From a virus: a stretch of DNA of 64,000 nucleotides. Location of the stretch: the IMG/VR virus record IMGVR_UViG_3300022856_000003; one strand, 5' to 3'. The position numbers were made by a program, and so were the translations under genes. Positions 3,345 to 19,721 of the stretch are shown piece by piece. The notes under the pieces were generated by a model, which saw only the letters and a list, made by a program, of their open reading frames with translations, did not search any database and was not told the DNA's origin. Numbering within the stretch: position 1 is the stretch's first letter; each line of letters begins with the position of its first letter.

Positions 3345-3904
3345 AGCCCCTCATCCCGTCCATGACAGATCGCCGTCGAGAACTCGCCTCGACCCACATT
3401 CCCGGTGACGAGGTTGATCGTGTCTACGAGGCGTACAAGTCCGTTATGGCCGAGTACATCAGCGTGGCCGACCGAATTTCGCCTCAGCTCATCGAGAACC
3501 CTCCGCAGACAGAGAAGCTGGACGCCTCGATCAAGTCAGCACTGGTGACGATGGCGAAGGCGCGAATCAAGGGCGGGCTCGGCAAGATCGCGTGGATGAG
3601 CTTCGTGGTCTTCGACCCCGATTACACGATGGACTGGCAGGACGAGAAGTTGCTCCCCGCCGCCGTGGTTCACCGTCGTTTGCACCAGAGCGACTTCTAC
3701 CTCTCCGAGTTCCGTTTGCTCAAGTCTCACGCGAAGGATGTAGATTGGACTGTGACAGTCCAGTCACCCGACTCGAAGTCGGTTGTCCAAAAGCGCCGCG
3801 AGTTCCCCATGTGGGGTCTCGAGCACAAGCACAATCTGGACAACCACCCGAAGGCTCAGGCGTGGTACCGAGCCCAACTGCAAGCAAGAGGGATCGTCAA
3901 ATGA
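3338..3904 (+). CDS. hypothetical protein
   Basis: AGGAG SD before ATG 3338; stop overlaps the next ATG. Confidence 0.7.
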   Translation: MLKPLIPSMTDRRRELASTHIPGDEVDRVYEAYKSVMAEYISVADRISPQLIENPPQTEKLDASIKSALVTMAKARIKGGLGKIAWMSFVVFDPDYTMDWQDEKLLPAAVVHRRLHQSDFYLSEFRLLKSHAKDVDWTVTVQSPDSKSVVQKRREFPMWGLEHKHNLDNHPKAQAWYRAQLQARGIVK

Positions 3905-4401
3905 CCGACATCATGACCGTGGAAGATTTTCAAGCACTCATGGCTGGGACTGACACCGAGATCCTTGAGTGCAGCGAGCCTATCGTGCTTGTTCACTCCA
4001 CCGAGTTCCGGCACTGGACCTCTGCCGAGGACCTCGAGTTCATGTCCTCGCTCCCCGAGGTGCCCGACGAGGGCAGCATGCTGGATGTTGAGCCTGACCC
4101 TGACCCGCCGAGCCAGGTGCTCAAGTGCGAGTCGAGGTTGTTCGACAGCATTGAGGAAGTTCGCGACTTCTTCATCGGTAAGCGATTCTTCTACTACGCG
4201 ATCGGCACGGCCCATGCCGCCGTACAGCGTGAGGATCGAGGGGATGACGCGAGGATCCACCTCCGATTCGCCGAGTGGATGCCGAAGGGAACCCCTCGCT
4301 CGATGAAGAGGTTGCTTCGCAAGACCGAGACGTTCTGGCATGAGGAGCCCACCTCTGACGGGGAGTACCCCAGGTCTGAGGAGATCGCCCACCTCCGGTG
4401 A
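3901..4401 (+). CDS. hypothetical protein
   Basis: ATGA coupling to upstream gene; typical codon usage. Confidence 0.65.
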   Translation: MTDIMTVEDFQALMAGTDTEILECSEPIVLVHSTEFRHWTSAEDLEFMSSLPEVPDEGSMLDVEPDPDPPSQVLKCESRLFDSIEEVRDFFIGKRFFYYAIGTAHAAVQREDRGDDARIHLRFAEWMPKGTPRSMKRLLRKTETFWHEEPTSDGEYPRSEEIAHLR

Positions 4402-4406
4402 GTTGA

Positions 4407-4420
4407 CGAAATCGATTTCG
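4407..4420. repeat. dispersed palindrome copy (perfect, extends to ACGAAATCGATTTCGT)
   Basis: Intergenic; extended -10-like TGtTAGAAT at 4436-4444 downstream. Confidence 0.9.
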
Positions 4421-4487
4421 TGACAAGACTGCCTCTGTTAGAATGCTTTCACTGTCCAACAGGTTTTGGACCACCCCGGAGTTCTAG

Positions 4488-4865
4488 ATGTCCCTTTTGA
4501 TGACCAAGCGCGAGATCGTCCTGATCAACACAAAGCAGGCGAAGCTGATCATTCGCGCCCACACCAAGATCCACTATCCGAAGGGTGCGAAGGTTCCGCT
4601 GGTCATCGACAAGACGAACCCGTCTCCGATCTCGGTCCAGGTGATTGGCGCGGTCGAGACCACTCTCCGTGCCATCACCGAGTCGATCGCGAAGGACGCC
4701 GGGTTCAAGAACCTCGCGGACTTCAAGAGCCACTGGAAGAACAAGGTCTACGGTCCGAAGGGCATCGACCCCTCGGGTGGTTCCCGCCACGCGGACGACT
4801 GCAAGGTCGTGCTCTACCGTTACCGGCGCACTGAGCTGGTTCAGAAGCGTCTCAAGGTCTCCTGA
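4488..4865 (+). CDS. ASCH/PUA-like domain protein
   Basis: TLRAITESIAKDAGFKNLADFKSHW resembles the ASCH C-terminal signature. Confidence 0.55.
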   Translation: MSLLMTKREIVLINTKQAKLIIRAHTKIHYPKGAKVPLVIDKTNPSPISVQVIGAVETTLRAITESIAKDAGFKNLADFKSHWKNKVYGPKGIDPSGGSRHADDCKVVLYRYRRTELVQKRLKVS

Positions 4866-4994: not shown

Positions 4995-6017
4995 ATGCTA
5001 GGTGCCTCGATTGGGTACAAACCAGATCATGCGGCCTTCCGGGATCTCATCGACGCTCGATTCAGAGCTGACGAGGAGAAGATCCCATTCGCGCCAGCGA
5101 AGACGGGTGACACGTCGACCTACTTCCGTGCCTCATCGCTCGGAAAGAGATGTGGCCGCAAGGAGGCGCTCAAGATCGTCCACAAGAAGACGAGCATTGA
5201 GGAGATCAAGCCAGAACTCCTGTACCTCTTCGCCAAAGGTCACGCCTATCACTGGATGCACCAGGAGAACATCCTCCCGCTCATTGCGAAGGATGGCCTT
5301 CTCGGCTGGTGGGTAGGCCCAGACTCCATGCTCACAGGAAGCAACGACGACGGAAGTCCGAAGCTCTGGACCATGGCAGAGGCCGCAGAGAAGATGGGCT
5401 GCAAGACCCATCAGCTCCAGTACAAAGAGGTGCATGCCTACGACCACGTCGGGATGATCAAGGGTCACCCTGACGCGATCCTGGACTGGAGCCGCCTCAA
5501 CTTCTCCCACGACGACCACCCAGACGGACTCGAGATTCTCGAGTTCAAGACGCGCCATGACTCCACATGGATGTGGGATGCCATCGACCCCTACCTCGGC
5601 GGTCAGCCTCTCAAGGATCACGTCCTACAGGTCCAGATCTACATGCTGATGACGGGCATCAAGCACGCTCGCATCATCTACATGAAAAAGGGCGACAACG
5701 AGTACACGGACGGGCTCAAGTACAGCTACGTCGAGTGGCGTGTCGAATCCGACCCGAAGGTCCAGGCGAAGATCAGGAAGTTCCTGACCGCGTGGTGGCA
5801 GGTGATCGAGAAGGCTTACGGCCAGGGCTACGTCCCGCCACGTAAGGTCTGTTCGGCCTTCACGAAGGGCAAGGCCACAAGCTGCGCTCTGCGCTACCTC
5901 TGCTTCGACAAGAAGCCATCGAAGAAGAAGGACAACCTTCGCGACTGCACTCCAGACGAGGTGCAGGACATGAAGAAGGCACTCGAAGAGATGCTCGACA
6001 TCGTCTTGGGAGACTGA
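4995..6017 (+). CDS. Cas4/RecB-like PD-(D/E)xK exonuclease
   Basis: RASSL..CGRK, GHPDAILD, LEFKT, QVQIYM and C-terminal Cys cluster. Confidence 0.8.
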   Translation: MLGASIGYKPDHAAFRDLIDARFRADEEKIPFAPAKTGDTSTYFRASSLGKRCGRKEALKIVHKKTSIEEIKPELLYLFAKGHAYHWMHQENILPLIAKDGLLGWWVGPDSMLTGSNDDGSPKLWTMAEAAEKMGCKTHQLQYKEVHAYDHVGMIKGHPDAILDWSRLNFSHDDHPDGLEILEFKTRHDSTWMWDAIDPYLGGQPLKDHVLQVQIYMLMTGIKHARIIYMKKGDNEYTDGLKYSYVEWRVESDPKVQAKIRKFLTAWWQVIEKAYGQGYVPPRKVCSAFTKGKATSCALRYLCFDKKPSKKKDNLRDCTPDEVQDMKKALEEMLDIVLGD

Positions 6018-6020
6018 CTG

Positions 6021-6350
6021 ATGACGACTCGCACAGTGATCGAATGCCAACGACTCGCCAGAGCATGGCTCAGCGGTATGAAGCCCAACCGTGAGATGGT
6101 CCGTGAGGAACTCGGTGGCGAGCCAACGGATCAGTTCCTCAAGGAGTTCGGGGTGCCACTTTCTGCGGCAGAGCGCGAGAAGCTGATGGATCTTTCGTTC
6201 GACGCGACGGTATCTCAGATGCAGCAAGAAGAGGACGAGGAGGTCTTAGCGAAGCTCGAGAAGCTGGCTGCCGATCCGATCTCGCTCAAGCCGTCAAGCC
6301 GTGGCGTGGGTCCGGTCGTGAAGAAGAAGCCCGTCGGGAGGAAACCATGA
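6021..6350 (+). CDS. hypothetical protein
   Basis: ORF in tightly packed operon. Confidence 0.6.
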   Translation: MTTRTVIECQRLARAWLSGMKPNREMVREELGGEPTDQFLKEFGVPLSAAEREKLMDLSFDATVSQMQQEEDEEVLAKLEKLAADPISLKPSSRGVGPVVKKKPVGRKP

Positions 6351-6616
6351 TCATCACCTGGGAAGAGACTGACGATCTCGCTGGCGTGCTCGTCGTGAAC
6401 ACAGACACCGACGCACACAACAACCGGTACGTCATCGCGTACAGGCATGTGATTGGCCAGAAGGGAAACCTCTACGCACTCATCGCGCTGTCCGACGGGA
6501 TGTGTCTTCCGTTCATGAAGAAGGAGCACATGATCGAGAAGCTCAACGACGGGTTCGCCCCGATCTCGCACAAGGAATCCATGATGCTGGCCTGTTTCGG
6601 AAGGAAGACGCCGTGA
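6347..6616 (+). CDS. hypothetical protein
   Basis: GGAGG SD, ATGA overlap. Confidence 0.65.
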   Translation: MIITWEETDDLAGVLVVNTDTDAHNNRYVIAYRHVIGQKGNLYALIALSDGMCLPFMKKEHMIEKLNDGFAPISHKESMMLACFGRKTP

Positions 6617-6837
6617 GCGGTAGGGTCCTCATGACCCTCCATGGTCAGACCTGGGATGACGACTCCAACCCAGAGAATGTGGACGTTTCAGCCTCCATCA
6701 AGCTCAAGACCAGTGGGTGGGGTCTGAACCTGATGGACTCGAGGGATGTCGCTGAGGACATCAAAGCCTCATTGGACAATCTGTCCGTCGAAGACATCGA
6801 GCGCCTCGTCAAGAGGATGCAGGGGGAAGAGGAATGA
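6613..6837 (+). CDS. hypothetical protein
   Basis: GTGA overlap upstream and ATGA overlap downstream. Confidence 0.55.
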   Translation: MSGRVLMTLHGQTWDDDSNPENVDVSASIKLKTSGWGLNLMDSRDVAEDIKASLDNLSVEDIERLVKRMQGEEE

Positions 6838-7367
6838 AGACCGTAGGCATCGACGCATCGCTCGCCAACACCGGATGCCTCGCGTACAAGCACGGACCCA
6901 ACCAGAGGGATTTCGGAAAGATCCTCGGTGAACTCACCGTGGGTCACTCCATCCCCAAGGGCTCCGACGTGAAGGACAGCATCCTGCGGATCATCAAGAT
7001 CTGTCAGGCAGTCAACGAGTTCATCCGAGAGCACGAACCAGACTTCGTCGTTGTCGAAGGCCCGTCCTACGCCTCTAAGTGGAGCCGTCACTACGACCTG
7101 GGTGGGCTCAACTACAGCATCTACATGCAGCTCCATCTGGTCTTCAAGATCACCGCGATCGTCCTGGCACCGAAGAGCGCCAGGAAGAAGGGTCTCGGCA
7201 GAGGAAGTGCGCCGACGACCTTCCCTGGTAAGACGGGAGCTACGCGAACGAAGAAGTGGATCCGAATGACGCTCGAGGAGTTGATCGGCAAGGAGAACGT
7301 GCCGAAGAACGAGCACCTCCGGGATGCTCTGGTTCTATGTCTCGCGCAGCAGGGGTTCCGAGAATGA
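6834..7367 (+). CDS. RuvC-like Holliday junction resolvase
   Basis: VGIDASLANTG, PDFVVVEG, RDALVL: RNase H-fold acidic residues. Confidence 0.8.
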   Translation: MKTVGIDASLANTGCLAYKHGPNQRDFGKILGELTVGHSIPKGSDVKDSILRIIKICQAVNEFIREHEPDFVVVEGPSYASKWSRHYDLGGLNYSIYMQLHLVFKITAIVLAPKSARKKGLGRGSAPTTFPGKTGATRTKKWIRMTLEELIGKENVPKNEHLRDALVLCLAQQGFRE

Positions 7368-7666
7368 AGAAGGGCGTGAACACAGCCCTCTACTCCGGGA
7401 ATGTAGGGAGCCGCTTTGAAGACTCGGACATCGACGGTCGAGATCCGAGGTTTTCCTTCGACATCTGCGGCGATCGTCGAGATGACAAGACGTGGGTGAC
7501 CATCAACGTGTTCCACGTCGAGACCATCTTGGACCTGCGAAATCGATTTCGCGATGGGACATTTAGCCAGGGCAGTTATGTCGTCGCGACAGGCTCTCTG
7601 ATGAAATGGAAGAGGGGACTTGCCATCCGCGTGGAATCCCTGGTTCTTTCTGAGAAAGCAGGTTGA
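7364..7666 (+). CDS. single-stranded DNA-binding (OB-fold)-like protein
   Basis: VNTALYSGNVG...WVTINVF...GSYVVATGSL resembles SSB strands; no acidic tail. Confidence 0.55.
   Translation: MKKGVNTALYSGNVGSRFEDSDIDGRDPRFSFDICGDRRDDKTWVTINVFHVETILDLRNRFRDGTFSQGSYVVATGSLMKWKRGLAIRVESLVLSEKAG
7538..7551. repeat. dispersed palindrome copy (intragenic, encodes RNRF)
   Basis: GCGAAATCGATTTCGC. Confidence 0.9.
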
Positions 7667-7808: not shown

Positions 7809-8744
7809 ATGTCCGATGAATCCCCCCTCGCGTCCGTTGACGCAATCGAAGCGGTCGAGATGACCGAAATCGAGAAGACCGAACTTCGTCAGGCGGTCAT
7901 CGTCGCGAAGGAGGCCGTCGAGAACGGCTACTGGGATCTCGCCAGTCTGCTCCACCGCGTGTGGGACGACAGCCTCTTCACCGAGTGGGGCTACGACGAC
8001 TTCGCCTCGTACATCGACGGCGAGCTGAACTACACGATGCGGACGGCTCAGTACCTCGTTCGCATCGCGGGCTACTTCGGCAAGATGGACGAGGAAATCC
8101 AGGTGTGGGTCAAGGCCCTCGGCTGGAGCAAGGCCAAGGAGCTGGTCAAGCGCGTCACCCCGGAGAACTTCGCCCACTGGAAGAAGATCATCGCGGGCAA
8201 GTCCGTCGCCCAGATTCAGGCGCTCCTCAAGGAGGACACCGGATCCGACACCGTCGCCAAGGAGGCCACGGACGAAGAGAAGCCGAAGCGCATGGGCTTC
8301 TCGCTCTTCGAGGACCAGACCGCGACCGTCAACCAGGCCCTCGAGAAGTGCAAGGACGAAGCGAACAGCGACAAGGACGGCAACGCGCTCACCCTGATCT
8401 GCCAGGACTACCTCTCCAGCGGAGATTCGTCGCTCGACGCGCGACTCCTCGCCATCGAGAAGACCTTCGGCGTGAAGATCATCGCGGTGCGAATCGAAGA
8501 GGGCGGTGTCTCCTATCCCTACGGTGAGGCCAACCTCGACGAGCTGCTCGCTTCGGACGACGAGCCCGACGGCGAAGCGACCATCGATGAGGAGACCGTC
8601 GCCCCCGATGACGAGGCCCCCGTCGAAGGTGATGACCTCGGCGACCTCAACCAGAAGGAGTTGGTCGCTCTCTGCAAGGAGCGCGGGATCGTCTGCAAGA
8701 CGAAGGACTCGAAGCCGACCTTGATCGGCCTGCTCTCGGCGTAG
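7809..8744 (+). CDS. putative DNA-binding protein with C-terminal SAP/HeH(Rho-N)-like motif
   Basis: WGYDDFASYI...RTAQYL HTH-like region; LNQKELVALCKERGI...KPTLIGLL; strongly biased codons. Confidence 0.55.
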   Translation: MSDESPLASVDAIEAVEMTEIEKTELRQAVIVAKEAVENGYWDLASLLHRVWDDSLFTEWGYDDFASYIDGELNYTMRTAQYLVRIAGYFGKMDEEIQVWVKALGWSKAKELVKRVTPENFAHWKKIIAGKSVAQIQALLKEDTGSDTVAKEATDEEKPKRMGFSLFEDQTATVNQALEKCKDEANSDKDGNALTLICQDYLSSGDSSLDARLLAIEKTFGVKIIAVRIEEGGVSYPYGEANLDELLASDDEPDGEATIDEETVAPDDEAPVEGDDLGDLNQKELVALCKERGIVCKTKDSKPTLIGLLSA

Positions 8745-8892: not shown

Positions 8893-9954
8893 ATGAATCA
8901 AGCGACACTAGGGTTCGAGCGTAAAGACCGCATCGAACTTGCGGACGGCCGAATCATCCTGGGAGGTCCGCAGTCTTGGACGGACAACGGCAAGAAGGTC
9001 CCGCCACGAGTCCTCCAGTTTTACAACCCCCATCGCGGCACGAGCTACCTTGTCCGCTCTGCGCTCCACAAGGAGATAAGGCGAGGCAACATCAAGCGTT
9101 CCATCGCGTTCGCCGCCTGGGCCGACAAGTGCAAAAAGGGAAGCGGACGAACCTACCTCCGTCGAATCCTGTTTGAGGAGACTCGGAACGTCCGCATCCT
9201 CCAGATGTTCCGAGACAAGGCCGAGACCCGTGACATCGTCATCGCCATGTGTCGGTCGGCGAAGGACTGGGAAGTCGACCAGGGTCACGGCATCTGTTTC
9301 CCTAAGTGGTACAAGGTCGTCGCAAGCCATAACTGGTATGGCAAATACGATTCCTGGTCCTCCGAGTTCCAGTGGCCAGACGACCCGGAACAAGTGATCA
9401 AGGATGCCGCCGCTGCCGGAGACCATGAGACGCTCATGGATCTGGTCGTGATGACGAGCGGTCCTTGCCTGCCCCGCTCTGAGGAGGTCCGCGACCTCAT
9501 CCGACCTCTGCTCTCGAAGATCGCGAGCGAGCGAGTTGATCCGAAGTGGCGTGACGCTGTGCGATCACTGCGGACGAAGAAGCATCACGAGGAAGTCCTG
9601 TTGCTCGCGCAGATCATCACAGGCGAGTGGGACGAGGACGCTTCCAACCACCTCCACCCCGCCCAGCATGGGCGGCGCGTAGATATCCCGATTTTCGAGA
9701 CCTACGTCTTCGATCCTCACACGATGCAGGGGAACAGGATCTTCAAGGCGAGGAAGGCGGCTGGTGAACTGGACTGGCACCTGCCGATGCCGCCCGACTT
9801 CGACATGCGATGGTCGGGACGTGACGCAGGGACGCTATGGCGGTACCTTGCGATGGAGCAGCACGGAACCACTGATCTCCTGTGGGAGGACGTGAAGCTC
9901 GAAGGCCAGCTCAAGGTGAACTGGGACCACTGCTACAAGGGAGAGTTCGAGTGA
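8893..9954 (+). CDS. stand-alone RarA/MgsA C-terminal-like helical protein
   Basis: SALHKEIRRG...YLRRILFEE...YVFDPHT..G; no Walker A motif. Confidence 0.5.
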   Translation: MNQATLGFERKDRIELADGRIILGGPQSWTDNGKKVPPRVLQFYNPHRGTSYLVRSALHKEIRRGNIKRSIAFAAWADKCKKGSGRTYLRRILFEETRNVRILQMFRDKAETRDIVIAMCRSAKDWEVDQGHGICFPKWYKVVASHNWYGKYDSWSSEFQWPDDPEQVIKDAAAAGDHETLMDLVVMTSGPCLPRSEEVRDLIRPLLSKIASERVDPKWRDAVRSLRTKKHHEEVLLLAQIITGEWDEDASNHLHPAQHGRRVDIPIFETYVFDPHTMQGNRIFKARKAAGELDWHLPMPPDFDMRWSGRDAGTLWRYLAMEQHGTTDLLWEDVKLEGQLKVNWDHCYKGEFE

Positions 9955-10670
9955 CCACTCCGAAGATCCGTGGAAACCCATGCACGGTGAATCAGCCGTG
10001 TCTGTTTCCTCGACTCCACATCATGAACCGAGCAGCCAGGGTGAAGACATTCATCGTCCTGTCGTCTGCCCAGTTCATGAGGAAATCTGACCAGGCACTC
10101 CTGTGGGTGACTCTGCGCGGAGTGCCAACGTCCATACGGATTCCGACCACTTCCGGTCGCGTGCCGCTGCGCGAGAAGTTCGTCCAACTCGATGAACGCG
10201 CCATGGGCAAGATCCTGCGACGCATCAAGAGCGAGTGGCCGAAGACCGCCGATGCCGAGGGTGCCCTTGCACTACTCGAGGTGGAGCTGAGAGCAACAAA
10301 CGGGCGCTCTATGGCTCAATGCGGGCTCCACTCGATGCGACACCGCTCCAACATCCTCGGTCTCACAGGCACGACCTTCGTCGACGATGTCGATGTGGCA
10401 CCGCCGATCCCTGGTGATCCAAGTGGGTGGATGCTCGACCAGTGCTTGAACATCGGGGCCAGTTCCTACTATGCTGGTGGCACAGCCATCAACGCTTACA
10501 TCGACCACGACAAGTGGAAGAGAAGGGGCGTGAGGCTTCTGGAACAGGACTGGAAAGTTCCGAAGGAAATCGTTGATCTCCTCGGACACGAAGTCTCAAC
10601 CAGCGTGCTGGATGTCATAGCCCACGGTGGGCTGGATGCACTTCGGAGAGAACTTGCCAGTCACCCTTGA
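9951..10670 (+). CDS. WbqC-like protein
   Basis: NQPCLFP...FIVLSSAQF...GASSYYAG...YID...SVLDVI matches the WbqC family pattern. Confidence 0.7.
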   Translation: MTTPKIRGNPCTVNQPCLFPRLHIMNRAARVKTFIVLSSAQFMRKSDQALLWVTLRGVPTSIRIPTTSGRVPLREKFVQLDERAMGKILRRIKSEWPKTADAEGALALLEVELRATNGRSMAQCGLHSMRHRSNILGLTGTTFVDDVDVAPPIPGDPSGWMLDQCLNIGASSYYAGGTAINAYIDHDKWKRRGVRLLEQDWKVPKEIVDLLGHEVSTSVLDVIAHGGLDALRRELASHP

Positions 10671-11241
10671 GACCTATCTCGAAAAAGCAGCCAGTGGGGA
10701 CAAGACCCTCGACGCTCTCTGCTGGCCCAGCCTCGACCGCGTGGAATCGCTCTACATCGAGTGGTTCGAGACCTGCCGAGAACGTGGAGTCCAGGTAGAC
10801 GGCTGCGACCTCCTAGACGTAGGTGAGGGTCTTGGCCTGTTCCAGGAGTGGCTCAAGAAGGAGTGGATCACCATGAAGGTGACCGGCGTTGAGGCTGCAA
10901 AGGAGTTCCACGAACACTGCGTCGAGAACTACCCGGAGCACACGCATGTCCACGGTGTTTTTCCTCATCATGCGCTGGGATCGTTGTACGACCATGTGGT
11001 CATGTTCGGGACACTGACGTGGATGAGCGAGGAGATGGCCAACGAGGTCGTCGTCGCTGGAGCTTTGAGGGCGAAGCGTTCTCTGGCATTCAACCTCATG
11101 GATCCTGCTCTGTACTCAGGAGCGTTCGAGGCGTTCCACCCTGCCCGCCTGCTCGAATCGCTCAAGGTCCTGGGATTCGACGTGATCATCCTGCACAAGC
11201 CGAAAGAGCAAGAGAACCTCTACGTCGCGGTGAGGAAATGA
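10654..11241 (+). CDS. class I SAM-dependent methyltransferase-like protein
   Basis: LLDVGEGLG motif I, VTGVE motif II, YDHVVMFG; GGAGAG SD before TTG. Confidence 0.7.
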   Translation: MPVTLETYLEKAASGDKTLDALCWPSLDRVESLYIEWFETCRERGVQVDGCDLLDVGEGLGLFQEWLKKEWITMKVTGVEAAKEFHEHCVENYPEHTHVHGVFPHHALGSLYDHVVMFGTLTWMSEEMANEVVVAGALRAKRSLAFNLMDPALYSGAFEAFHPARLLESLKVLGFDVIILHKPKEQENLYVAVRK

Positions 11242-12680
11242 GAATCCTCTACGTCCCGTTCTTCAGCAACATCAACTACGAGGGGTGCAGCATCTTCAAT
11301 GCGATGCGCGTCCTGTTGATGAACATGGTGAAGCAGCACAACGACGTGTTCATTCACTGGCCGGTACCTGCCCCGCCGTTCTCGACGAAGAACCTGGGCT
11401 ACATCGACCACCCTCGCGTCGAGACCTTCCCGGTGAAGGCGATCAGACTCCAGGGAAACGACGCGGTCTTCGTGCCGTCCGACCTGTTCGAGCGGTTCAA
11501 CTCCCATTGGGGTGACACCCCCATCGACCTCATCCTCTGCGACAAGCCCCGTGTGGCGTTCTGGGTGAAGATGCTCATGAACCAGCATCTCAGGCACCAC
11601 GAGACAGAGATCCCCATCATGACCTTCTCCCAGTACGCACTGGTGAGGAGCCGTGAGTCGGACCAGGATTCCTCGGAGGACTTCGAGCTTGCTCAGGTGC
11701 TCGGGTGGTTCTCGGCTCAAAAGACGGTCTGGCCGTCCTCGCGTGATCGTCGGATCGGACTCCAGGCTGCTCGTCGCTACCTGCGACCGAGCGCGGTGAA
11801 CCGGATCATCGAGCGTTCCATCGACGACGTTCCGAACAGCATCGATACGGACCGGATCACGGGTCACATGAGTGTCCGATCCAAGGACGAGATGCTCATC
11901 AACTATGGCTCGCGCTTCGCTCACGGGTACCGACCCGCGAAGGTGTTCGAGGAGATGGAGAGCGTTTTCAAGGGTGGACGCCAGGTCAAGTTCGTCATCA
12001 CTTCACCAAGCAAACCAGCGAAGTTCAGCAGCGTCCTCTTGGGTGAACTGACAGAGCGCGGAGTGCCTTATGAGGCGCACATTCCCTGTGGTCAGACGAA
12101 GTTCTACCGCGAGGCGTCCCGATGCCATGTCGTGCTCAGGATGGAGCCGGGGTACGAATCCAGTCTCTCACTCCGTGAGCACATGTTCATGAAGCTCGCT
12201 GTGGTGATGCCGAGGGGCAAGGTCATCGAACCTCTGCTCGAGGGCTACCCGTGGCAGTACGACACGGTCGCTGAGGCTCGCACCATGCTCCGCTACCTCG
12301 TCGACCACTATTGGGACGAGGACGTGCAGGAGACGCTGGAGACGTTCCGAGACAGGGTAGTTGAGCTGAACAGCGCCTCGACAAGTGGAGAGCGTCTGTA
12401 TCACCACTGCGTCGGCGTCGTGGCTGGTGTACTGCCCGAGCTGTCCAGCGTGAAGCAGACCGTCTCACTGTGCATGGACGCCATCGAGAGATCCGGCAAG
12501 AGAGAGTTCACTTGGACCGAGTTCTGTCTGATGTGCAAGAAGCACACGGACTCCGGGATCGAACCGAAGAAGCACATCTACTTCGGTCGGACGAACATGA
12601 CCTTCAAGCACGCTCTCATCCATGCCGGGTGGGTGGACGACTGCCAGGGGCCGGAACCGCACTTCGTAGAAGTCAAATGA
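11238..12680 (+). CDS. GT-B fold glycosyltransferase (GT4-like)
   Basis: MRILYV start, PNSID, YGSRF, FYREASRCHVV, ESSLSLREHM (ExnE-like motif). Confidence 0.7.
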   Translation: MRILYVPFFSNINYEGCSIFNAMRVLLMNMVKQHNDVFIHWPVPAPPFSTKNLGYIDHPRVETFPVKAIRLQGNDAVFVPSDLFERFNSHWGDTPIDLILCDKPRVAFWVKMLMNQHLRHHETEIPIMTFSQYALVRSRESDQDSSEDFELAQVLGWFSAQKTVWPSSRDRRIGLQAARRYLRPSAVNRIIERSIDDVPNSIDTDRITGHMSVRSKDEMLINYGSRFAHGYRPAKVFEEMESVFKGGRQVKFVITSPSKPAKFSSVLLGELTERGVPYEAHIPCGQTKFYREASRCHVVLRMEPGYESSLSLREHMFMKLAVVMPRGKVIEPLLEGYPWQYDTVAEARTMLRYLVDHYWDEDVQETLETFRDRVVELNSASTSGERLYHHCVGVVAGVLPELSSVKQTVSLCMDAIERSGKREFTWTEFCLMCKKHTDSGIEPKKHIYFGRTNMTFKHALIHAGWVDDCQGPEPHFVEVK

Positions 12681-13345
12681 CCGTCCTGATGGGCGCGAAG
12701 TCCATCCTCGTGGTGGGCGCTCATGCTGACGATATGGAACTCGGCTGCGGAGGCTTCGTCGCCTCCATAATTGCGAAGGGCTCGAGTGTGACCTCTCTGG
12801 TCATGACGGGCTCGCCATCGACGGATCACGAAGGACGAGTCTGGCGCGACAACGACTCAGCGAGTCGCTCGTCAAGGGCCGCAGCTAAAGTCCTTGGTGG
12901 TGTGACAGTCCGGTTTCTCGACTTCGACGATATGGCCGTGCCGTACAACCGGAAGTCGATCCACGATGTGAACAGAGTCATCGACGAGATCCAGCCAGAT
13001 CTCATCATCACCCACTGGGTTGGTGACTCGAACTCTGACCACTCCAACACCTCGCGCACGGTGATCACAGCAGCACGTCGCCACAAGAACGTGCTGTCGA
13101 TGGAGCCTCCACTCTCGAAGCTGAACGTCGGAGGCGTTTTCCCTGGCTGCGTCTTCGCAACTTTTGGTGAAGATGTTCTCGCGATGAAGCTCGAAGCCAT
13201 CCGATGCCACAGTAGTGAGATGCCGCGACTAGCTCTCGGGAACGGCTTCGAGCAGCATGGCCGACGAAATCGATTGCACGGCTCCCAGGCGGGTGCCTAT
13301 GCCGCCGAGCTGTTCACCCCAATCCAGATCACCTGGAGCCCCTGA
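12677..13345 (+). CDS. PIG-L/LmbE family deacetylase
   Basis: VVGAHADDMELGCGG, PDLIITH...SDH, CHSSE. Confidence 0.9.
   Translation: MTVLMGAKSILVVGAHADDMELGCGGFVASIIAKGSSVTSLVMTGSPSTDHEGRVWRDNDSASRSSRAAAKVLGGVTVRFLDFDDMAVPYNRKSIHDVNRVIDEIQPDLIITHWVGDSNSDHSNTSRTVITAARRHKNVLSMEPPLSKLNVGGVFPGCVFATFGEDVLAMKLEAIRCHSSEMPRLALGNGFEQHGRRNRLHGSQAGAYAAELFTPIQITWSP
13265..13278. repeat. dispersed palindrome variant (CGAAATCGATTGCA), intragenic
   Basis: Read directly. Confidence 0.75.
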
Positions 13346-14130
13346 TGGCAAAGCAGTATGAGATCCGCGAACTGGACCTCGACCTGATCGACCCGAACCC
13401 TTGGAACCCCAACGAGCAGAGTGAGTCCACGTTCGACATCCTCGCTGAGGAGCTGGACGACGATGGAGACGGAGTCGGGTACATCGACCTGATCCAGGTG
13501 GTGCCGTGGGGCGAACCAGGGCGCTTCCGCATCATCGGAGGGGAACACCGCTGGCGTGCTCTCCGTGTGAATGGCGAAGAGACGGCTGACGCTCTGGTCC
13601 TGATCGATGAGAAGTGGCAGGACGAGGACCTTCAGAAGTTCGTCACCATGAGGCTCAACTCGCTCAAGGGGAGCATCAATCCTGCGAAGTTCATGGCGCT
13701 CTACAACGACCTGGCCGACAGGCACTCCGCAGACGACATGCAGCGCCATATGGCTGTGACAGACGACGATGCCTGGCACCTGATGACAAAGGACGTTAGG
13801 AAGCAGCTCGAGTCCGCTCTCGACGGTGCTGGCGGTGATGACGCGAAGAAGCAGAAGGCTCTTGAGGAGTTCGACAAGGTCGCGAAGGAGGTCAAGACAG
13901 TCGACGACCTCTCGAACGTGCTCAACAAGATCTTCAACGAGTACGGCGACACGCTCGACTCGAACTTCATGTGGTTCACGTTCGGCGGGAAGAAGCATCT
14001 TCATCTGACGATGGAGGCTTCGGATTGGAAGGCCGCAGAGGCGCTCATCTCGATCGTGAAGAAGAATGGTTTGCAGGCCGACAAGGTGTTTGGGAACTTG
14101 ATGAGCGACTGGGTCGCAAAGAACAAGTGA
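13345..14130 (+). CDS. ParB/Srx N-terminal domain protein
   Basis: IDPNPWNPN, IIGGEHRWRA, RLNSLKG. Confidence 0.85.
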   Translation: MAKQYEIRELDLDLIDPNPWNPNEQSESTFDILAEELDDDGDGVGYIDLIQVVPWGEPGRFRIIGGEHRWRALRVNGEETADALVLIDEKWQDEDLQKFVTMRLNSLKGSINPAKFMALYNDLADRHSADDMQRHMAVTDDDAWHLMTKDVRKQLESALDGAGGDDAKKQKALEEFDKVAKEVKTVDDLSNVLNKIFNEYGDTLDSNFMWFTFGGKKHLHLTMEASDWKAAEALISIVKKNGLQADKVFGNLMSDWVAKNK

Positions 14131-14216: not shown

Positions 14217-14669
14217 ATGAACCACGACAGAGACGCTCTCTCAAAGCAGCTCCAGCGACACTCCCTACTCGTTCGTGTCGTAGACCAATGTGCTGTCGCT
14301 ATCTGGGCGACTGATCTTGAGGGCGAGGTTCTCATTTCAGAAGGTGGACTTCTTGAGGCCGTGGGTCTCAAGCCTGGAGAGGTCGTCGGCATGAACATCT
14401 CGTCGTTCCCTGGCCATGCTCAATGGGAAGCTGCACTCCTGAAGATCCACGCTGGCGAAGAAAAAGTGAGCTTCGTGTCGAAAGCTGACGAGATTACTCA
14501 GGATTCACCGAGTCCAGGCGAAAGGCCGTCGTCATTCGTCCATGTTGGCGGGTGGTTAGAGACGTACAGCCCTCTACGATCGCCAGCCGGTCGTATTGTC
14601 GGTATTCTTGCCACAGCCATGAGTCTCGTTGGGGCCACGACCGCTATTACGGAGGCGTTGCCTGGCTAG
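14217..14669 (+). CDS. stand-alone PAS-domain protein
   Basis: IWATDLEGEVLISEG...GLKPGEVVGMNI...YSPLRSPAGRIVGI is a PAS/PAC pattern. Confidence 0.7.
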   Translation: MNHDRDALSKQLQRHSLLVRVVDQCAVAIWATDLEGEVLISEGGLLEAVGLKPGEVVGMNISSFPGHAQWEAALLKIHAGEEKVSFVSKADEITQDSPSPGERPSSFVHVGGWLETYSPLRSPAGRIVGILATAMSLVGATTAITEALPG

Positions 14670-14693: not shown

Positions 14694-15116
14694 ATGTCCC
14701 GCTTGAAGCCGTCGGAAGTTGCAGTTGCCCTTGAGCGTGTGCGTACACATCATCCGGCTGAGGCCGAACGCCTAGCAGGACACATTGAGGCAATCGGCAC
14801 TGAAGACGCGCTCCTGTCTGTCGTTCGTGAGATGATCGAGGCGAAAGAGCAGTCGAAGGCGGCTGAGGAAGTCACCGCGAAGATTCTCGACGCCTGGAAG
14901 CCCATCATGGAGGTTGGCTCGATGGCTATTGGGAAGATGGCGACCGAGGAGAAGCGCGCCAACGACCTGAAACAGAGGGAGCTGGACAGACAGGATCGCC
15001 TCGACGTTCAAGGGCTGGAGGTCACAAGGCTCCGGTACAAGCACATCATCGTCCCTGCCGTCACAGCCTTGGCGGGATTCCTCGCCGCGTGGAGTGCGTT
15101 CAACTTCGCCGGATGA
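14694..15116 (+). CDS. coiled-coil protein with C-terminal transmembrane helix (holin-like?)
   Basis: AAGGAG SD; hydrophobic IIVPAVTALAGFLAAW at the C-terminus. Confidence 0.5.
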   Translation: MSRLKPSEVAVALERVRTHHPAEAERLAGHIEAIGTEDALLSVVREMIEAKEQSKAAEEVTAKILDAWKPIMEVGSMAIGKMATEEKRANDLKQRELDRQDRLDVQGLEVTRLRYKHIIVPAVTALAGFLAAWSAFNFAG

Positions 15117-15188: not shown

Positions 15189-15836
15189 ATGTCCGACACG
15201 AGATTCGAGAAGCGTTCAGGGACGTTTGGCAAGCTCCACGGCTTCGCTAGCTTCCCGGAGGCAAAGCACCGCATTCTCGCTGGTGTGACTCCGACTCGCG
15301 TAGCTCGATGGATGCACGAACAGGGTGACTACACAGACATCCCCGTGAGGAGTCTCGCAGCGACCCTCTGTGCGTACCGTCGGACGCTGTCCGCTCGTGA
15401 GCTAATCGCTACGAGGGAGCCTCAGTTCGTTGCTGAGGCAAAGGATGAGGTCAACTCTGGTCTCGACGAGCTTCAAGAACTTGCCGCCATCTTCGCCATC
15501 CAGAAGAACCGCGTGGTCATGGGCCACGAACTGGAGTCGAAGCTCAAGATCCTCAACAAGAGCCTGGGCAATGAGGTCCGTATCGCCGGAGAACTTCTCC
15601 GCACTTCGATGACCATCAAGCAGTCCTTGGGACTCGCTTCCGGTGGTGACGCCGATCGACGTGGTGACCCGACCTTCAAGCATGACGTTCGCTCCAGATA
15701 CGGTGAGCGCGTCGCACAGGTGCTTGAGAACCCCGGGAAGCGAAACCGCGTGCTCAACGTCGTCTCGAGCTTGCTTGAGGCCGCAGAGGCAAAGAAGGTT
15801 GAAGCGACGGTGCCTGTGAAGACGGCCACTGGATAA
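15189..15836 (+). CDS. putative terminase small subunit
   Basis: N-terminal HTH-like region plus coiled coil, immediately upstream of TerL. Confidence 0.5.
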   Translation: MSDTRFEKRSGTFGKLHGFASFPEAKHRILAGVTPTRVARWMHEQGDYTDIPVRSLAATLCAYRRTLSARELIATREPQFVAEAKDEVNSGLDELQELAAIFAIQKNRVVMGHELESKLKILNKSLGNEVRIAGELLRTSMTIKQSLGLASGGDADRRGDPTFKHDVRSRYGERVAQVLENPGKRNRVLNVVSSLLEAAEAKKVEATVPVKTATG

Positions 15837-15839
15837 CCG

Positions 15840-17852
15840 ATGATCGAGTTCACCGAAGGACGTGCCAACTCAGTTCGCACGGTCCACGAGCTTGAGTCCA
15901 TCGCGCAGCAGCAGTTCGCTGATCTGTCGGCAGATGAACAGAAGACGGTTCTAGCTATCCTCGGCGAGATGGAGGATGGGGAAGACCAGCTCCTCTCCCT
16001 TCTGCATGCCTCCCACTGGGAGCGCGCACCAGTCTCGATGAGGCAGTTCCTCACCGACGACTACTACATGGGGATCCCTGGGAAGTCGCTCTACCCGAAG
16101 CTGCGAGAGGACCTGATTTCGATCTTCGACGACGGGAACTACAGCGAGATCATCCTCGCCGGTTCCATCGGCTGGGGTAAGTCCACTGCCGCATCGTTCA
16201 TCGTGGCTCGAACGCTCTACGAGATCTCATGCCTTCGAGACCCTCAGCGGACATTCGGCCTGAGCCCCGGCAGCGAAATCCATTTCGCTCTCATCTCGAA
16301 GAACCTTGAGCAGACTCGCAAGGTCCTCCGTCAGAAGGTCATCGAGCCACTACGTCTGTCGCCCTACTTCCAGGAGATGTTCCCGTGGAAGGAGCGGGCC
16401 TATGAAGACGTGTTCCCGAAGAACGTCATCATGTTCGTGGCCTCCATCGGGTCGACCGACCGCATCTTGGGCTCCAACCTATTCGGAGCTGCCGTCGATG
16501 AGGTGAACTTTCTCGGCAAGAACAAGGCCGCGAAGCTGGGCACCACCGAGGGTCGGAAGGACCTTGCCGCATTCGACAAGGCCGACAAGCTCTACAGGAC
16601 GCTCGTCCGTCGCATCAAGTCGCGCTTCTCTCATACCGGCAAGCTGCCAGGCAAGCTCTGTCTCATCTCGTCGAAGACAGTGAAGAACAGCTTCACAGAG
16701 AGGCGCGTCCGAGAGTCTCGGATCGACCCGTCGGTGTTCGTGCTCGACTACGCCACCTGGCACGTGAAGCCGAAGGCATCGTTCAGCGGAAAGTGGTTCA
16801 ACGTCCTGGTCGGAGGCACCACGGCTCGGTCGAAAATCCTGGTGGACGACGACATGCCGTCGGAGATCTTCCTCAAGGAGACTGGCAGCTACATCGTCAA
16901 AGTCCCCGAGGAATACCGAGAGGATTTCGACAACGACCTCAATGGTTCTCTGCGGGATGTCGCTGGTGTTTCGGTAGAGGCGATCAGCCAGTTCATCATT
17001 CGACAGGAGAAGATCTACGACGCCTCCGATGAGACGCTCAAGCACCCGTTCACCATCCACGACTGGACCTATGGTGAGCCTGGTGACTTCCGTTGGGGAG
17101 ACATCTGCGAGGCGAAGAAGCGCAAGGTCAAGGGTGGATACGAGGAACTGGTATGGGAACCGAAGACCCGACCCAATGCCCACCGCCATCTGCACATCGA
17201 CGTGGCGCTGTCCGGTGACTCACTGGGTATTGCCATGGGACACATCGTCCGGTGGAAATCCGTCATCAGGCGCGACCCGACCGGCGAGAAGTATTCGGAC
17301 ATCGCTCCCGAGGTTCAGATCGACTTCATGCTCCGCGTGAGGCCACCGGCTGGCGAACAGATCTTCCTGCCCGACATCCGTGCGATGGTCTATGCATTCC
17401 AGGAGCATGGATTCCCGGTCAATAGCTTCTCCTGCGACTCCTTCCAGAGTGCGGAGATGATCCAGCAGATGAAGGCTCGAGGCGTGACCTCTGAGGTCAT
17501 CTCGCTGGACCGAACGTCCGACGGGTACAACGCGCTACGCCAGGCATTCTACGAAGATCGGTTGAAGGTCTACCACTATCAGCCCTTCATTGAGGAGTGC
17601 ATGGCTCTGGAGTATGATGCGTTCAAGGGCAAGGTGGACCATCCACTTGCCGGATCGAAGGATGTGGCGGATGCTGTGGCCGGAGTCATAGAAGGACTCA
17701 AGCGGCACGCAGGTCGAGCACCGCTTCCGATGTTGCCGCAGGCTGGTCCTGGCGTGGAGGATGATGATGCGTCGTGGGTCCTCGATGGAAACAAGAAGCC
17801 TGTCGGCTCCGGTGGTCATCAAAACGTCCCCATGCCTTTCATCTCGGGTTGA
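15840..17852 (+). CDS. terL: terminase large subunit
   Basis: Walker A GSIGWGKST, Walker B AAVDE, ISS coupling motif, nuclease HIDVALSGD and KDVADAVAG. Confidence 0.92.
   Translation: MIEFTEGRANSVRTVHELESIAQQQFADLSADEQKTVLAILGEMEDGEDQLLSLLHASHWERAPVSMRQFLTDDYYMGIPGKSLYPKLREDLISIFDDGNYSEIILAGSIGWGKSTAASFIVARTLYEISCLRDPQRTFGLSPGSEIHFALISKNLEQTRKVLRQKVIEPLRLSPYFQEMFPWKERAYEDVFPKNVIMFVASIGSTDRILGSNLFGAAVDEVNFLGKNKAAKLGTTEGRKDLAAFDKADKLYRTLVRRIKSRFSHTGKLPGKLCLISSKTVKNSFTERRVRESRIDPSVFVLDYATWHVKPKASFSGKWFNVLVGGTTARSKILVDDDMPSEIFLKETGSYIVKVPEEYREDFDNDLNGSLRDVAGVSVEAISQFIIRQEKIYDASDETLKHPFTIHDWTYGEPGDFRWGDICEAKKRKVKGGYEELVWEPKTRPNAHRHLHIDVALSGDSLGIAMGHIVRWKSVIRRDPTGEKYSDIAPEVQIDFMLRVRPPAGEQIFLPDIRAMVYAFQEHGFPVNSFSCDSFQSAEMIQQMKARGVTSEVISLDRTSDGYNALRQAFYEDRLKVYHYQPFIEECMALEYDAFKGKVDHPLAGSKDVADAVAGVIEGLKRHAGRAPLPMLPQAGPGVEDDDASWVLDGNKKPVGSGGHQNVPMPFISG
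16274..16287. repeat. one-mismatch palindrome variant (CGAAATCCATTTCG) in terL
   Basis: Flanks extend the symmetry: AGCGAAATCCATTTCGCT. Confidence 0.55.
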
Positions 17853-17855
17853 TCA

Positions 17856-19721
17856 ATGAGCTGGATCCGAGACCGAATCAACGACATCCGAGAAGGCTTC
17901 TCCGGGGATTCCGGCAAGAAGGTCCGGGACATGCTCGACACGGACAAGGAGCGTGCAGCGGCAGAGATCCGCCGTGCCTCCCGTCCGACGAACGACAGAT
18001 CGTCTCAAGCGTGGAACATGTTCGACGCCCACGGGTATGCGGGGCTCTCGGACCACTTGGTCATCGAGAACGACCTCATGACCCGCTTCCTCGACTACGA
18101 GGAGATGGACGACTTCCCCGAGCTACACACTGCGCTCGACATCTACGCGGATGACGCATCTCAGGAGGATGTTCTTCGGAACAAGTCAGTCTGGATCACG
18201 TCCGAAGACGAGCGGGTCAAAGCGATCGGCACCGAGCTGCTCCACCAGACCCTCCGTATCGAGGAAGATCTCTGGGGCATCTTTCGGACGCTGTCGAAGT
18301 ACGGAAATGCCTACGCCGAACTGCTGGTGTCGGAGGGGAAGGGAGTCATCGGACTCGCCTTCATGCCTCCGGCCACCGTGCGGCGCATGGAGGACTACAA
18401 GAACGGTCTCATGGGATTCATCCAGGACCCGTCCGGTAAGGGGATGTCACCCGAGGAGTTCAAGAAGCTCCTCGACGGTGATGGTCGCCTGAACAAGGAC
18501 GCGGTAAGCCTCGATGCATCGGGAGCGATGAAGTTGGGCCAGGCTACTGAGGCCGGTCGACACATCGTCCCGTTCGAGGACTGGGAAGTGATCCATTGGC
18601 GTCTTCGCGGTAAGTGGATGCGTTCCATTTACGGCCACTCGGTACTTGAATCGGCCCGTTGGGTCTTTCGCCGTCTCGTACTGCTCGAAGACGCTGCGAT
18701 GCTCTACAAGCTGACACGGGCTCCCGCTCGGTACGTCTACTACATCGACACCGGGGATCTGAACCCGAAGCAGGCGCTCTCCTACGTCAACGACGTTCGT
18801 CGTGGACACAAAAAGAAGAAGTACGTCAACGCTCAGGGCAAGCTCGAGTTCAAGGTCAACCCCCTCGCCCAGGATGAGGACTTCTGGGTGCCTACCCGTG
18901 GAGGCAAGGAGTCCACACGAATCGACATCCTGAGTGGAGCTGACTGGCAGTCCATGGAGGACATCAAGTACTTCCGCCAGAAGATCCTCGCTGCCATCAA
19001 GATCCCTGCCGCCTACATCGGCATGTCTGACGCTGGCGATGAGGCTCGAGCTTCGCTGTCGTCTCAAGACGTGCGATTTGCGAAGACCATCCTCCGCATC
19101 CAGCGCGAGATGAAGAACGGTCTCCGCAAAGTGATGAGGGTTCACCTCTCCGCTCTGGGCATCGACCCGTCGTCGGTGGAGTGGGACATCCACATGGCAT
19201 CTCCCAGCTCGATCTTTGAGTTGGCCCAGATTGAAGTGCGGAACGCGCAAGCTGACCTCGCTACCCGTATGGAGCCCTTCGTCGACAAGAACTGGATCCT
19301 GGCGAACATCTTCGACTTCTCTGTTGACGAGATCGAAGACATGAAGCAGGCGAAGAAGGACGACACCGAAGACGATGCAATGCATCAGACAGAGATCCAG
19401 AAGCAGCAGAGTGAGATGCTTGGGCTGAACCCTGACGGTTCCATGCCTGATGAGGAGGGTGGAGCTACCCCACCTCCTGTGGCAAAGCCGAAGCCGCCTT
19501 CTGCCGAATCGGGTGAGTCCTCGAAGGAGAAAGGGACTGGCGACAAGCGACCGAACCCGAAGAAGGGGAAGGCAAAGCCCATCAAGAAGAACACGGCTGA
19601 GAGTCGTCTCGACGCTCTTGATCGTGCGATGAAGGCCCGCCGTGCTCGTCGTCTAGACCTGACAGAAGGTGAAGAGGCAGAAGTCATCCGACCAGTCTTC
19701 CGCAAGCGGTCCGGTTCGTAG
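17856..19721 (+). CDS. gp20: portal protein, T4 gp20-like
   Basis: YEEMD..PE...ALDIYADD, LLEDAAMLYKLTRAPARYVYYIDTGDL, EDFWVPTRGG. Confidence 0.92.
   Translation: MSWIRDRINDIREGFSGDSGKKVRDMLDTDKERAAAEIRRASRPTNDRSSQAWNMFDAHGYAGLSDHLVIENDLMTRFLDYEEMDDFPELHTALDIYADDASQEDVLRNKSVWITSEDERVKAIGTELLHQTLRIEEDLWGIFRTLSKYGNAYAELLVSEGKGVIGLAFMPPATVRRMEDYKNGLMGFIQDPSGKGMSPEEFKKLLDGDGRLNKDAVSLDASGAMKLGQATEAGRHIVPFEDWEVIHWRLRGKWMRSIYGHSVLESARWVFRRLVLLEDAAMLYKLTRAPARYVYYIDTGDLNPKQALSYVNDVRRGHKKKKYVNAQGKLEFKVNPLAQDEDFWVPTRGGKESTRIDILSGADWQSMEDIKYFRQKILAAIKIPAAYIGMSDAGDEARASLSSQDVRFAKTILRIQREMKNGLRKVMRVHLSALGIDPSSVEWDIHMASPSSIFELAQIEVRNAQADLATRMEPFVDKNWILANIFDFSVDEIEDMKQAKKDDTEDDAMHQTEIQKQQSEMLGLNPDGSMPDEEGGATPPPVAKPKPPSAESGESSKEKGTGDKRPNPKKGKAKPIKKNTAESRLDALDRAMKARRARRLDLTEGEEAEVIRPVFRKRSGS

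Follow-up and report, generated by a model that had tools for sequence, protein, structure and literature searches.

A conserved glycosyltransferase and ParB-like gene core beside the phage terminase, with variable amino-sugar tailoring genes and a possible part in DNA hypermodification

Why should a phage carry a compact set of sugar-modifying genes at the threshold of its packaging module, and what would their products modify? The question is raised by a 64,000-nucleotide (nt) stretch of viral DNA from IMG/VR record IMGVR_UViG_3300022856_000003 (the whole of which we call the window), where six genes at 8893–14130 had been predicted from the letters alone to form a coupled operon for RarA-C-like, WbqC-like, S-adenosylmethionine (SAM) methyltransferase, GT-B glycosyltransferase, PIG-L deacetylase and ParB-like proteins. 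That original prediction proposed an amino-sugar modification of DNA (or capsid), coupled to packaging. Here we describe genes 2–6 of this region as what appears, from homology and gene order, to be the local form of a phage cassette that is widespread yet uncharacterised, and in which a fixed core of a glycosyltransferase with a winged-helix-like tail (GT-WH) and a ParB-like protein is accompanied by variable amino-sugar tailoring enzymes. Database records of cultured phages already contain these genes, annotated one by one; we came across no paper in which they are described as a single system.

The six open reading frames (ORFs) lie on the + strand, as does every long ORF in the window, and their ends overlap at each junction. 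Gene 1 (8893–9954) and gene 2 (9951–10670) share a GTGA, gene 2 and gene 3 (10636, or 10627, to 11241) overlap by about 35–44 nt, ATGA overlaps join gene 3 to gene 4 (11238–12680) and gene 4 to gene 5 (12677–13345), and a TGATG joins gene 5 to gene 6 (13345–14130). The predicted unit of six coupled reading frames is thereby borne out at the level of start and stop codons. A promoter and terminator scan gave no signal beyond shuffled expectation, and the boundaries of the operon are therefore defined by spacing alone. On the 3′ side follow the large terminase subunit (15840–17852, +; phrog_2), the portal protein (17856–19721, +; phrog_213, 3.8e-61) and a prohead protease, as expected from the predicted placement just upstream of the terminase; on the 5′ side lie a RecA/UvsX-like gene and a Cas4-like exonuclease gene. 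These flanks mark the window as phage DNA and set the cassette at the border between a recombination block and a packaging-structural block. A megablast search of the region against 50,697 phage records gave no match.

Gene 4 (+ strand) is modelled as a GT-B/GT4-like glycosyltransferase (residues 1 to ~395) followed by a C-terminal winged-helix-like domain (~395–480). It has no Pfam match at E ≤ 0.1 and matches phrog_30253 (‘glycosyltransferase’) at 7e-16. The AlphaFold2 model (pLDDT 82, pTM 0.85) contains two Rossmann-like domains in a GT-B architecture, and its Foldseek matches are led by the GT4 enzymes MshA, PglA and BshA, with E values of 2e-12 to 1e-10; at least 500 structures in the PDB match at E ≤ 1e-3, and the best among those listed are GT-B enzymes, mostly of the GT4 group (MshA, PglA, BshA, PimA). 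A family member from Vibrio phage PG28 (L005:11465–12973) that aligns with gene 4 over its full length scores 38.3 bits against Pfam Glycos_transf_1 (cut-off 26.4). Nine divergent members share an invariant E314 and H297 in the C-terminal Rossmann domain, which may be candidates for the catalytic and nucleotide-sugar-binding residues of an EX7E-type motif. The last ~85 residues of gene 4 form, in the model, a helix-strand-helix-helix-strand-strand unit whose nearest structures are the winged-helix domains of Cdt1 (Cdt1_C), MCM (MCM4 WHD) and the primase C terminus (PriCT), at TM scores of 0.6–0.68, and divergent members from cultured phages retain this tail.

An exhaustive profile search recovered 652 representatives of the GT-WH family at E ≤ 1e-3 (135 at ≤ 1e-30). 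The best 150 of the 652 are nearly all ~465–510 amino acids (aa) long and align across the whole profile, and the family comprises several hundred clusters at 50% identity. A word-indexed search found six relatives only; exact-peptide scans of IMG/VR returned no match with the glycosyltransferase alone and one locus with alignment A1, and one metagenome scan returned one short contig. Judged by its model and by these alignments, gene 4 appears to belong to a distinct glycosyltransferase family of ~480 aa with an additional C-terminal winged-helix-like domain. Two full-length GT-WH paralogues occur in Arthrobacter phage KellEzio (L007), at 3198–4703 and 6001–7467 (gp84, annotated hypothetical, and gp90).

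The second component of the core, gene 6 (13345–14130, +), encodes a ParB-like protein (phrog_26387, 1.3e-46) that probably begins with a ParB/Srx domain of the CTPase fold, followed by a helical C-terminal part. Its Pfam ParB_N score is 20.7 bits against a cut-off of 26.3, and an alignment with Helicobacter pylori ParB (4umk; 2.8e-5) covers the conserved box, in which gene 6 carries GEHRWRA, a variant of GERRxRA, opposite GERRLRA. No gene for ParA, the partner of canonical chromosome and plasmid ParB proteins, was found in the window region scanned. A tblastn search with gene 6 hit 22 phage records, which fall into the same phage groups as the carriers of the glycosyltransferase family; gene 6 is the conserved partner of the glycosyltransferase.

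This pairing recurs with its setting. In almost every lineage examined, GT-WH is followed, directly or 1–2 small ORFs later, by the same ParB-like subfamily and mostly then by a basic gene resembling the small terminase subunit (TerS-like) and the large terminase gene (TerL). We found this order in Vibrio phage PG28 and its relatives VH2_2019 and V-YDF132, Vibrio phage KarBoss, Stenotrophomonas phage DLP3, Rhizobium phage RHph_TM16 (TM16), the Rhodobacter RcF phages, Agrobacterium phage JP1 and two complete 90-kb IMG/VR genomes; in RcZahn it spans the genome ends, with the glycosyltransferase at the right end and ParB as gene 1. Arthrobacter phages KellEzio and DanielleIgnace carry the pair as well, close to the right-hand end of their linear genomes (the stretch examined there contains no terminase gene), as does an SU10-like IMG/VR contig (L001) whose terminase has no detectable similarity to that of the window. 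DLP5, Summit and RHph_Y1_11 lie outside this neighbourhood survey. A glycosyltransferase and ParB-like core beside the terminase is thus conserved across many phage lineages.

The remaining genes of the cassette encode candidate tailoring enzymes. Gene 2 (9951–10670, +) is WbqC-like (PF08889; E 1.5e-12, 48.3 bits against a cut-off of 21.3), with a match that spans profile positions 1–216 of 218; all 30 of its Atlas neighbours are WbqC proteins, the top cluster is 58% viral, and homologues occur in two copies in the PG28 cassette and also in a short contig, L002. Its product is a putative N-acyl or aminoacyl transferase for amino sugars. We take the glycine-transfer role of WbqC to be a proposal attached to the Pfam family entry, and a literature search for a functional study of it found none. 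Gene 3 (10636–11241, +; the start is uncertain, 10627 GTG or 10636 ATG) resembles small class I SAM-dependent methyltransferases, with weak matches to Methyltransf_25, 11, 23 and 12 at E 5e-4 to 0.025, every one under its Pfam cut-off; methyltransferases stand at its cassette position in L002, PG28, DLP3 and L012, the locus nearest to the window by its large terminase. Gene 5 (12677–13345, +) is a PIG-L/LmbE-family de-N-acetylase (PF02585; E 5.5e-20, 72.6 bits against a cut-off of 28.2) with the metal-binding AHADD motif at residues ~14–18 of the translation. Its nearest NCBIfam model is BshB1 (TIGR04001; 1.4e-18), at 67.4 bits against an equivalog cut-off of 182.5, which suggests a family relative of BshB1 and not an orthologue. 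Homologues of gene 5 lie in the PG28, KarBoss and DLP3 cassettes, and two Vibrio phage papers interpreted the PIG-L gene as an endolysin. For five of the six genes, then, profile hidden Markov models and predicted folds agree with the families first proposed and do not redirect them to unrelated ones: WbqC, PIG-L, GT-B/GT4 (by predicted fold), a ParB-like N-terminal domain and, weakly, a SAM methyltransferase.

Around the core, the tailoring set changes from phage to phage. The window has WbqC, methyltransferase and PIG-L genes; PG28 has PIG-L, two WbqC genes and a methyltransferase; L002 has WbqC-like, methyltransferase and glycosyltransferase genes in the order of the window. DLP3 combines PIG-L with a WcaG-type dehydratase/epimerase, a WecE-type aminotransferase and a methyltransferase, and in KarBoss a PIG-L homologue is followed by three unannotated ORFs positioned like the WcaG, WecE and methyltransferase genes of DLP3. 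RHph_TM16 carries an N-acyltransferase, a dehydratase and an aminotransferase, L012 a radical SAM/SPASM enzyme and a methyltransferase, and the RcF phages and JP1 a small ‘DprA-like’ gene only. The richer versions (window, PG28, DLP3 and RHph_TM16) point to an amino sugar with its nitrogen exposed or decorated, and varying tailoring genes round a fixed core would be the pattern expected of a diversifying glycan under selection. In L012 the gene 1 homologue and the glycosyltransferase gene flank the radical SAM/SPASM gene (10865–11938), which stands where WbqC/PIG-L would be and suggests quite different sugar or base chemistry there. The ‘DprA-like’ (Rossmann-type) gene lies directly 5′ of GT-WH in the RcF phages, JP1 and two IMG/VR relatives (L003 8182–8571, L006 983–1399).

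What would such a cassette act on? The reading that we favour, with a confidence that we would put about midway between belief and disbelief, is ParB-assisted amino-sugar hypermodification of the phage’s own DNA. In this scheme the GT4 enzyme would transfer an N-acetylhexosamine (HexNAc), probably N-acetylglucosamine (GlcNAc) from UDP-GlcNAc, onto a DNA acceptor, with the ParB-like protein as a DNA-loading or activating partner, as for the ParB-dependent phage thymine dioxygenases. The PIG-L enzyme would then strip the N-acetyl group to give cationic glucosamine, WbqC could re-acylate the amine, and the methyltransferase could methylate the amine or the sugar. DNA modified in this way would be shielded from host nucleases; the added positive charge would offset phosphate charge and could ease packaging, in keeping with a location immediately 5′ of the terminase genes. 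The predicted coupling to packaging has that gene position as its basis.

The chemical logic of the scheme comes from the fold of gene 4, closest to the GlcNAc transferases MshA and BshA, and from the adjoining PIG-L gene, closest to BshB. Their adjacency supports a pathway because transfer followed by deacetylation is an established pairing in the synthesis of mycothiol, bacillithiol and glycosylphosphatidylinositol (GPI). Characterised PIG-L members act mostly on GlcNAc glycosides rather than on UDP-GlcNAc, which suggests that deacetylation comes after transfer. Of the original prediction, the gene identities and the chemical reasoning thus hold up, namely the GT4/PIG-L pairing with WbqC and a methyltransferase that could decorate the amine; that DNA is the target, which base accepts the sugar, what sugar it is, how the steps are ordered and whether tailoring falls before or after transfer are inferred.

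As to ‘DNA (or capsid)’, the target first proposed, the DNA alternative gains indirect support from the core beside the terminase, from ParB-activated dioxygenases and from the behaviour of carrier DNA. Genes for phage DNA glycosyltransferases are reported to neighbour ParB-like and terminase genes, and DNA that carries HexNAc is on record (bioRxiv 2023.12.21.572611). Experiments have shown that phage ParB-like proteins activate a subclass of thymine dioxygenases on DNA that is double-stranded, and such proteins recur in hypermodification clusters (PMC13229309); the ParB-CTPase fold is widespread in phages and frequently fused to DNA methyltransferases (PMC12704722). The ParB-dependent dioxygenases resemble the present case in having a dedicated ParB-like protein encoded beside the DNA-modifying enzyme, and their ParB shares with gene 6 an N-terminal nucleotide-binding fold, a helical C-terminal part and the lack of an obvious DNA-binding domain. 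They differ from it in that the partner of gene 6 is a glycosyltransferase, whose dependence on ParB would follow only by analogy. DLP3 DNA resisted 15 of 15 restriction enzymes (PMC7326821) and DLP5 DNA was cut by only 4 of 36 (PMC5834331), and the authors call the modification undetermined in both. Searches for TGT/DpdA in five carriers (DLP3, TM16, PG28, RcTiptonus and DanielleIgnace) found none, and eight complete carrier genomes gave no ThyA-type (PF00303) and no TET/JBP (PF12851) match, which makes the cassette the obvious candidate for the DLP3 and DLP5 modification.

Several observations weigh against a DNA target. The restriction resistance of DLP3 and DLP5 is linked to the cassette by carriage only. 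Known DNA glycosylations need a hydroxymethylpyrimidine, and so the missing acceptor maker counts against the proposal: besides the negative searches of the eight carrier genomes, no TET/JBP-like or hydroxymethylase-like match was found among the ~36 window ORFs (about half) scanned with Pfam, in line with the earlier remark that no base hydroxylase or hydroxymethylase was visible. A divergent ThyX-like gene is present in DLP3 and in none of the other seven carriers, the window or the remaining loci examined. The acceptor would then be the product of an unrecognised enzyme, be supplied by the host or be a canonical base, the last without precedent; we know of no Leloir glycosyltransferase that acts on a canonical base. 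The proteins themselves offer little sign of DNA binding. Gene 6 is acidic (isoelectric point (pI) 4.7) and has no helix-turn-helix match in sequence-family scans, and the pI of the winged-helix-like tail ranges from 5.1 to 9.4 across members; because it is not consistently basic, DNA binding by the tail lacks compositional support, and we set aside the idea of a basic DNA-binding module. The synteny has its own weaknesses. The closest relative of the window by TerL (L012, 47% identity) has the glycosyltransferase, and a ParB of the gene 6 subfamily was not found within the 20 kb examined, the sole exception. The TerL of the window is also 30–34% identical to those of PG28, RcTiptonus, JP1, DLP3, TM16 and KarBoss, so that part of the shared gene order may reflect common descent and not function.

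The ThyX-like gene of DLP3 (record positions 73767–74660; L008/L011) matches PF02511 at E 1.8e-6, has an RHR...S...SxR-type motif, lies directly after the large terminase gene and is annotated hypothetical; its product could make a modified pyrimidine. The RcTiptonus terminase (L003 11987–15127; 1046 aa) matches the window TerL in two parts, at residues ~86–152 and 484–975, which suggests a large insertion, possibly an intein.

A bolder form of the proposal, which we consider a long shot, is that the GT-WH/ParB-like pair represents the first DNA glycosylation without a hydroxymethylpyrimidine. An amino sugar would be placed after replication on a canonical base, or on the acceptor made by an unrecognised enzyme, by a glycosyltransferase that ParB loads or activates, and interchangeable tailoring enzymes, whether deacetylase, WbqC, aminotransferase, radical SAM enzyme or methyltransferase, would turn it into a lineage-specific cationic DNA glycan.

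Among known systems, the closest in working are the sugar-hypermodification clusters of phage DNA (T-even glucosyl-5hmC; the 5mYOX/ThyS-associated glycosyltransferase clusters of bioRxiv 2023.12.21.572611), in which, as here, a soluble phage GT-B enzyme adjoins ParB-like, methyltransferase and terminase genes and nuclease protection is the likely benefit. In contrast to those clusters, no partner of the hydroxymethylase, C5-methyltransferase or TET/JBP kind turned up among the window ORFs scanned or in the eight carrier genomes, and the glycosyltransferase here belongs to a separate ~480-aa family with a winged-helix-like tail; de-N-acetylation is unmentioned in the text of that preprint. The proposed order of chemistry is that of the MshA-MshB, BshA-BshB and PIG-A-PIG-L pairs, a GT4 GlcNAc transferase followed by a PIG-L/LmbE de-N-acetylase and then by acylation of the free amine. 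Unlike in mycothiol and bacillithiol synthesis, however, gene 5 falls far under the BshB equivalog cut-off (67 versus 182 bits) and there is no MshC/BshC-type ligase, and what sets the cassette apart from these and the GPI pathway is its packaging-proximal place in a phage and its ParB-like partner. To our knowledge, DNA sugars with WbqC-type decoration have not been reported.

The same genes could instead serve virion protein glycosylation, in which capsid, sheath or tail proteins would receive a tailored amino sugar during assembly, with the ParB-like gene as a chance neighbour that helps in packaging or partition. We think this unlikely. In its favour, the cassette heads the structural block, directly before terminase, portal, protease and capsid genes, its enzymes are soluble, variable tailoring genes would equally suit the diversification of a surface glycan, and a winged-helix-like domain that is not basic could bind protein. 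Some mycobacteriophages glycosylate capsid and tail-tube proteins, with phage glycosyltransferases and methyltransferases near the structural genes, and we know of no ParB-like partner or PIG-L/WbqC tailoring in those systems. What virion glycosylation leaves without account is the presence of one ParB-like subfamily after the glycosyltransferase in nearly every lineage, including L001 with its dissimilar terminase, and it would offer no candidate enzymes for the restriction resistance of DLP3 and DLP5 DNA. The major capsid protein of DLP3 was covered to 92% by peptides in unenriched mass spectrometry (PMC7326821), which speaks weakly against dense glycosylation.

Less probable still, in our view, is a host-directed role, in which an envelope precursor (lipopolysaccharide, capsule or teichoic-acid-like) would be modified, or a glucosamine-based small molecule made as mycothiol or bacillithiol is, for superinfection exclusion, lysogenic conversion or counter-defence. 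The closest folds and families do come from enzymes of small-molecule or lipid-linked glycans (MshA, BshA, PglA, BshB and the WbqC of O-antigen clusters), the PG28 homologue of gene 4 weakly matches the Pfam family ‘GT4 in conflict systems’, and the authors of the DLP3 and DLP5 studies read the genes as morons that alter the host surface (PMC7326821; PMC5834331). Yet the cassette lacks a membrane-anchored component, a flippase and a polymerase, lytic growth is described for most carriers, the genes sit in the late/packaging region and not in an independently transcribed moron, and the constant ParB-like partner is left without a role. Seroconversion of the Gtr type was set aside, since no segment resembling a membrane span occurs in any of the six proteins.

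We are comparably sceptical that there is no single pathway at all, only a compact transcription unit. Gene 1 and the ParB-like gene would then be parts of the replication and packaging backbones, and the sugar genes would serve different targets. In two complete RcF-like IMG/VR genomes (G003 and G004) about 28 kb separate the relatives of gene 1 from the glycosyltransferase gene, start/stop overlaps are common across phage genomes, and both the ParB exception in L012 and the related terminases, with synteny possibly by descent, fit such a view. It is countered by the co-occurrence of glycosyltransferase, PIG-L, WbqC or aminotransferase, and methyltransferase genes as a block in four differing compositions, and by the adjacency of the glycosyltransferase and ParB-like genes in the Arthrobacter phages and L001, outside the terminase lineage.

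Gene 1 (8893–9954, +) is where the six-gene pathway as first drawn probably gives way. Its description as RarA-C-like holds for one domain of ~80 residues (48–126), which a VIA structure search aligned to the C-terminal domain of MgsA/RarA (3bge, Z 8.4, root-mean-square deviation (r.m.s.d.) 1.9 over 79 residues; then 2r9g, 3pvs, 8g28 and 2qw6). All of the top five matches are MgsA/RarA C-terminal domains, at Z 7.1–8.4 against 4.8 for the next, unrelated match, and with r.m.s.d. values of 1.8–2.3 for four of them and 4.9 for 8g28. Gene 1 shares with these domains the helical fold and a SALHKxIRxGD motif, of which SALHKE.R.G is invariant among its homologues. The domain was seen only by the exhaustive VIA search; a Foldseek search of the PDB with the model of gene 1 gave no significant match, no family matched the sequence, and tblastn against cultured phages found nothing. 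Unlike RarA and MgsA, gene 1 has no AAA+ ATPase module (no AAA family matched), and two thirds of the protein lie outside the match, with ~220 further residues (135–353) to which no fold is assigned. Weak profile matches (E 9e-6 to 3e-3) to KellEzio gp78, an L001 ORF and a KarBoss ORF have two collinear motifs in common with it. These two MgsA_C-like motifs are all that gp78, a 239-aa ‘AAA-ATPase’, shares with gene 1, and several gene 1 homologues have an N-terminal CxC...CxH (SWIM-like) Cys/His motif that is absent from the window copy.

Relatives of gene 1 head the cassette in KarBoss and L012, and in G003 and G004 those that lie ~28 kb from the glycosyltransferase gene stand beside RecA, exonuclease and homologues of the gene at 7809–8744. 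On account of that distant placement among recombination genes, we assign gene 1 and the 7809–8744 gene to the recombination backbone; gene 1 is probably outside the sugar pathway, a part of the recombination/replication backbone that abuts the cassette, and its inclusion in the predicted glycosylation pathway is probably mistaken. The 7809–8744 gene (+) encodes an acidic protein (pI 4.4; phrog_17202, 3.5e-33) and is a conserved upstream neighbour, since L012 and the Vibrio phages PG28 and KarBoss have homologues 5′ of their cassettes; we treat it as context and not as part of the pathway.

If the target is DNA, the cassette would be a new and fairly widespread route to hypermodified phage DNA, in phages with hosts in Vibrio, Stenotrophomonas, Rhizobium, Rhodobacter, Agrobacterium and Arthrobacter. 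It would account for the restriction resistance of the Delepquintavirus phages DLP3 and DLP5 and would add glycosyltransferases to the dioxygenases as DNA-modifying enzymes with ParB-like partners. An amino sugar on DNA whose N-decoration varies would be new chemistry, relevant to the ways in which phages evade restriction and CRISPR, to artefacts in sequencing and to enzymes that might be used to label DNA. Because cultured carriers exist, the idea is directly testable. Should the virion or the host envelope turn out to be modified instead, the conserved pairing of glycosyltransferase and ParB would still need explaining.

Between the cassette and the large terminase gene, the window encodes a basic small-terminase-like protein directly 5′ of TerL (15189–15836, +; pI 9.6), which has no family match and has same-position homologues in JP1, KarBoss, L012 and RcZahn. 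Two small ORFs (14217–14669 and 14694–15116) separate it from the ParB-like gene; the first has a weak PAS match, both have a hydrophobic C-terminal end (KD19 1.8 and 1.95), and relatives have different small ORFs, or none, in their place. No pyruvate-phosphate-dikinase-like gene was found among the large window ORFs scanned. Such a gene and a tyrosine-phosphatase-like gene lie a few kilobases 3′ of TerL in PG28 (L005), RHph_TM16 (L009) and RcZahn (L015), and DLP3 has both elsewhere in its genome (dikinase-like gp135, phosphatase-like gp139/141). The region just after the terminase includes a dCTP deaminase-like gene in PG28 and a dUTPase gene in KarBoss, and all of these might act on nucleotides or DNA in the pathway of the cassette.

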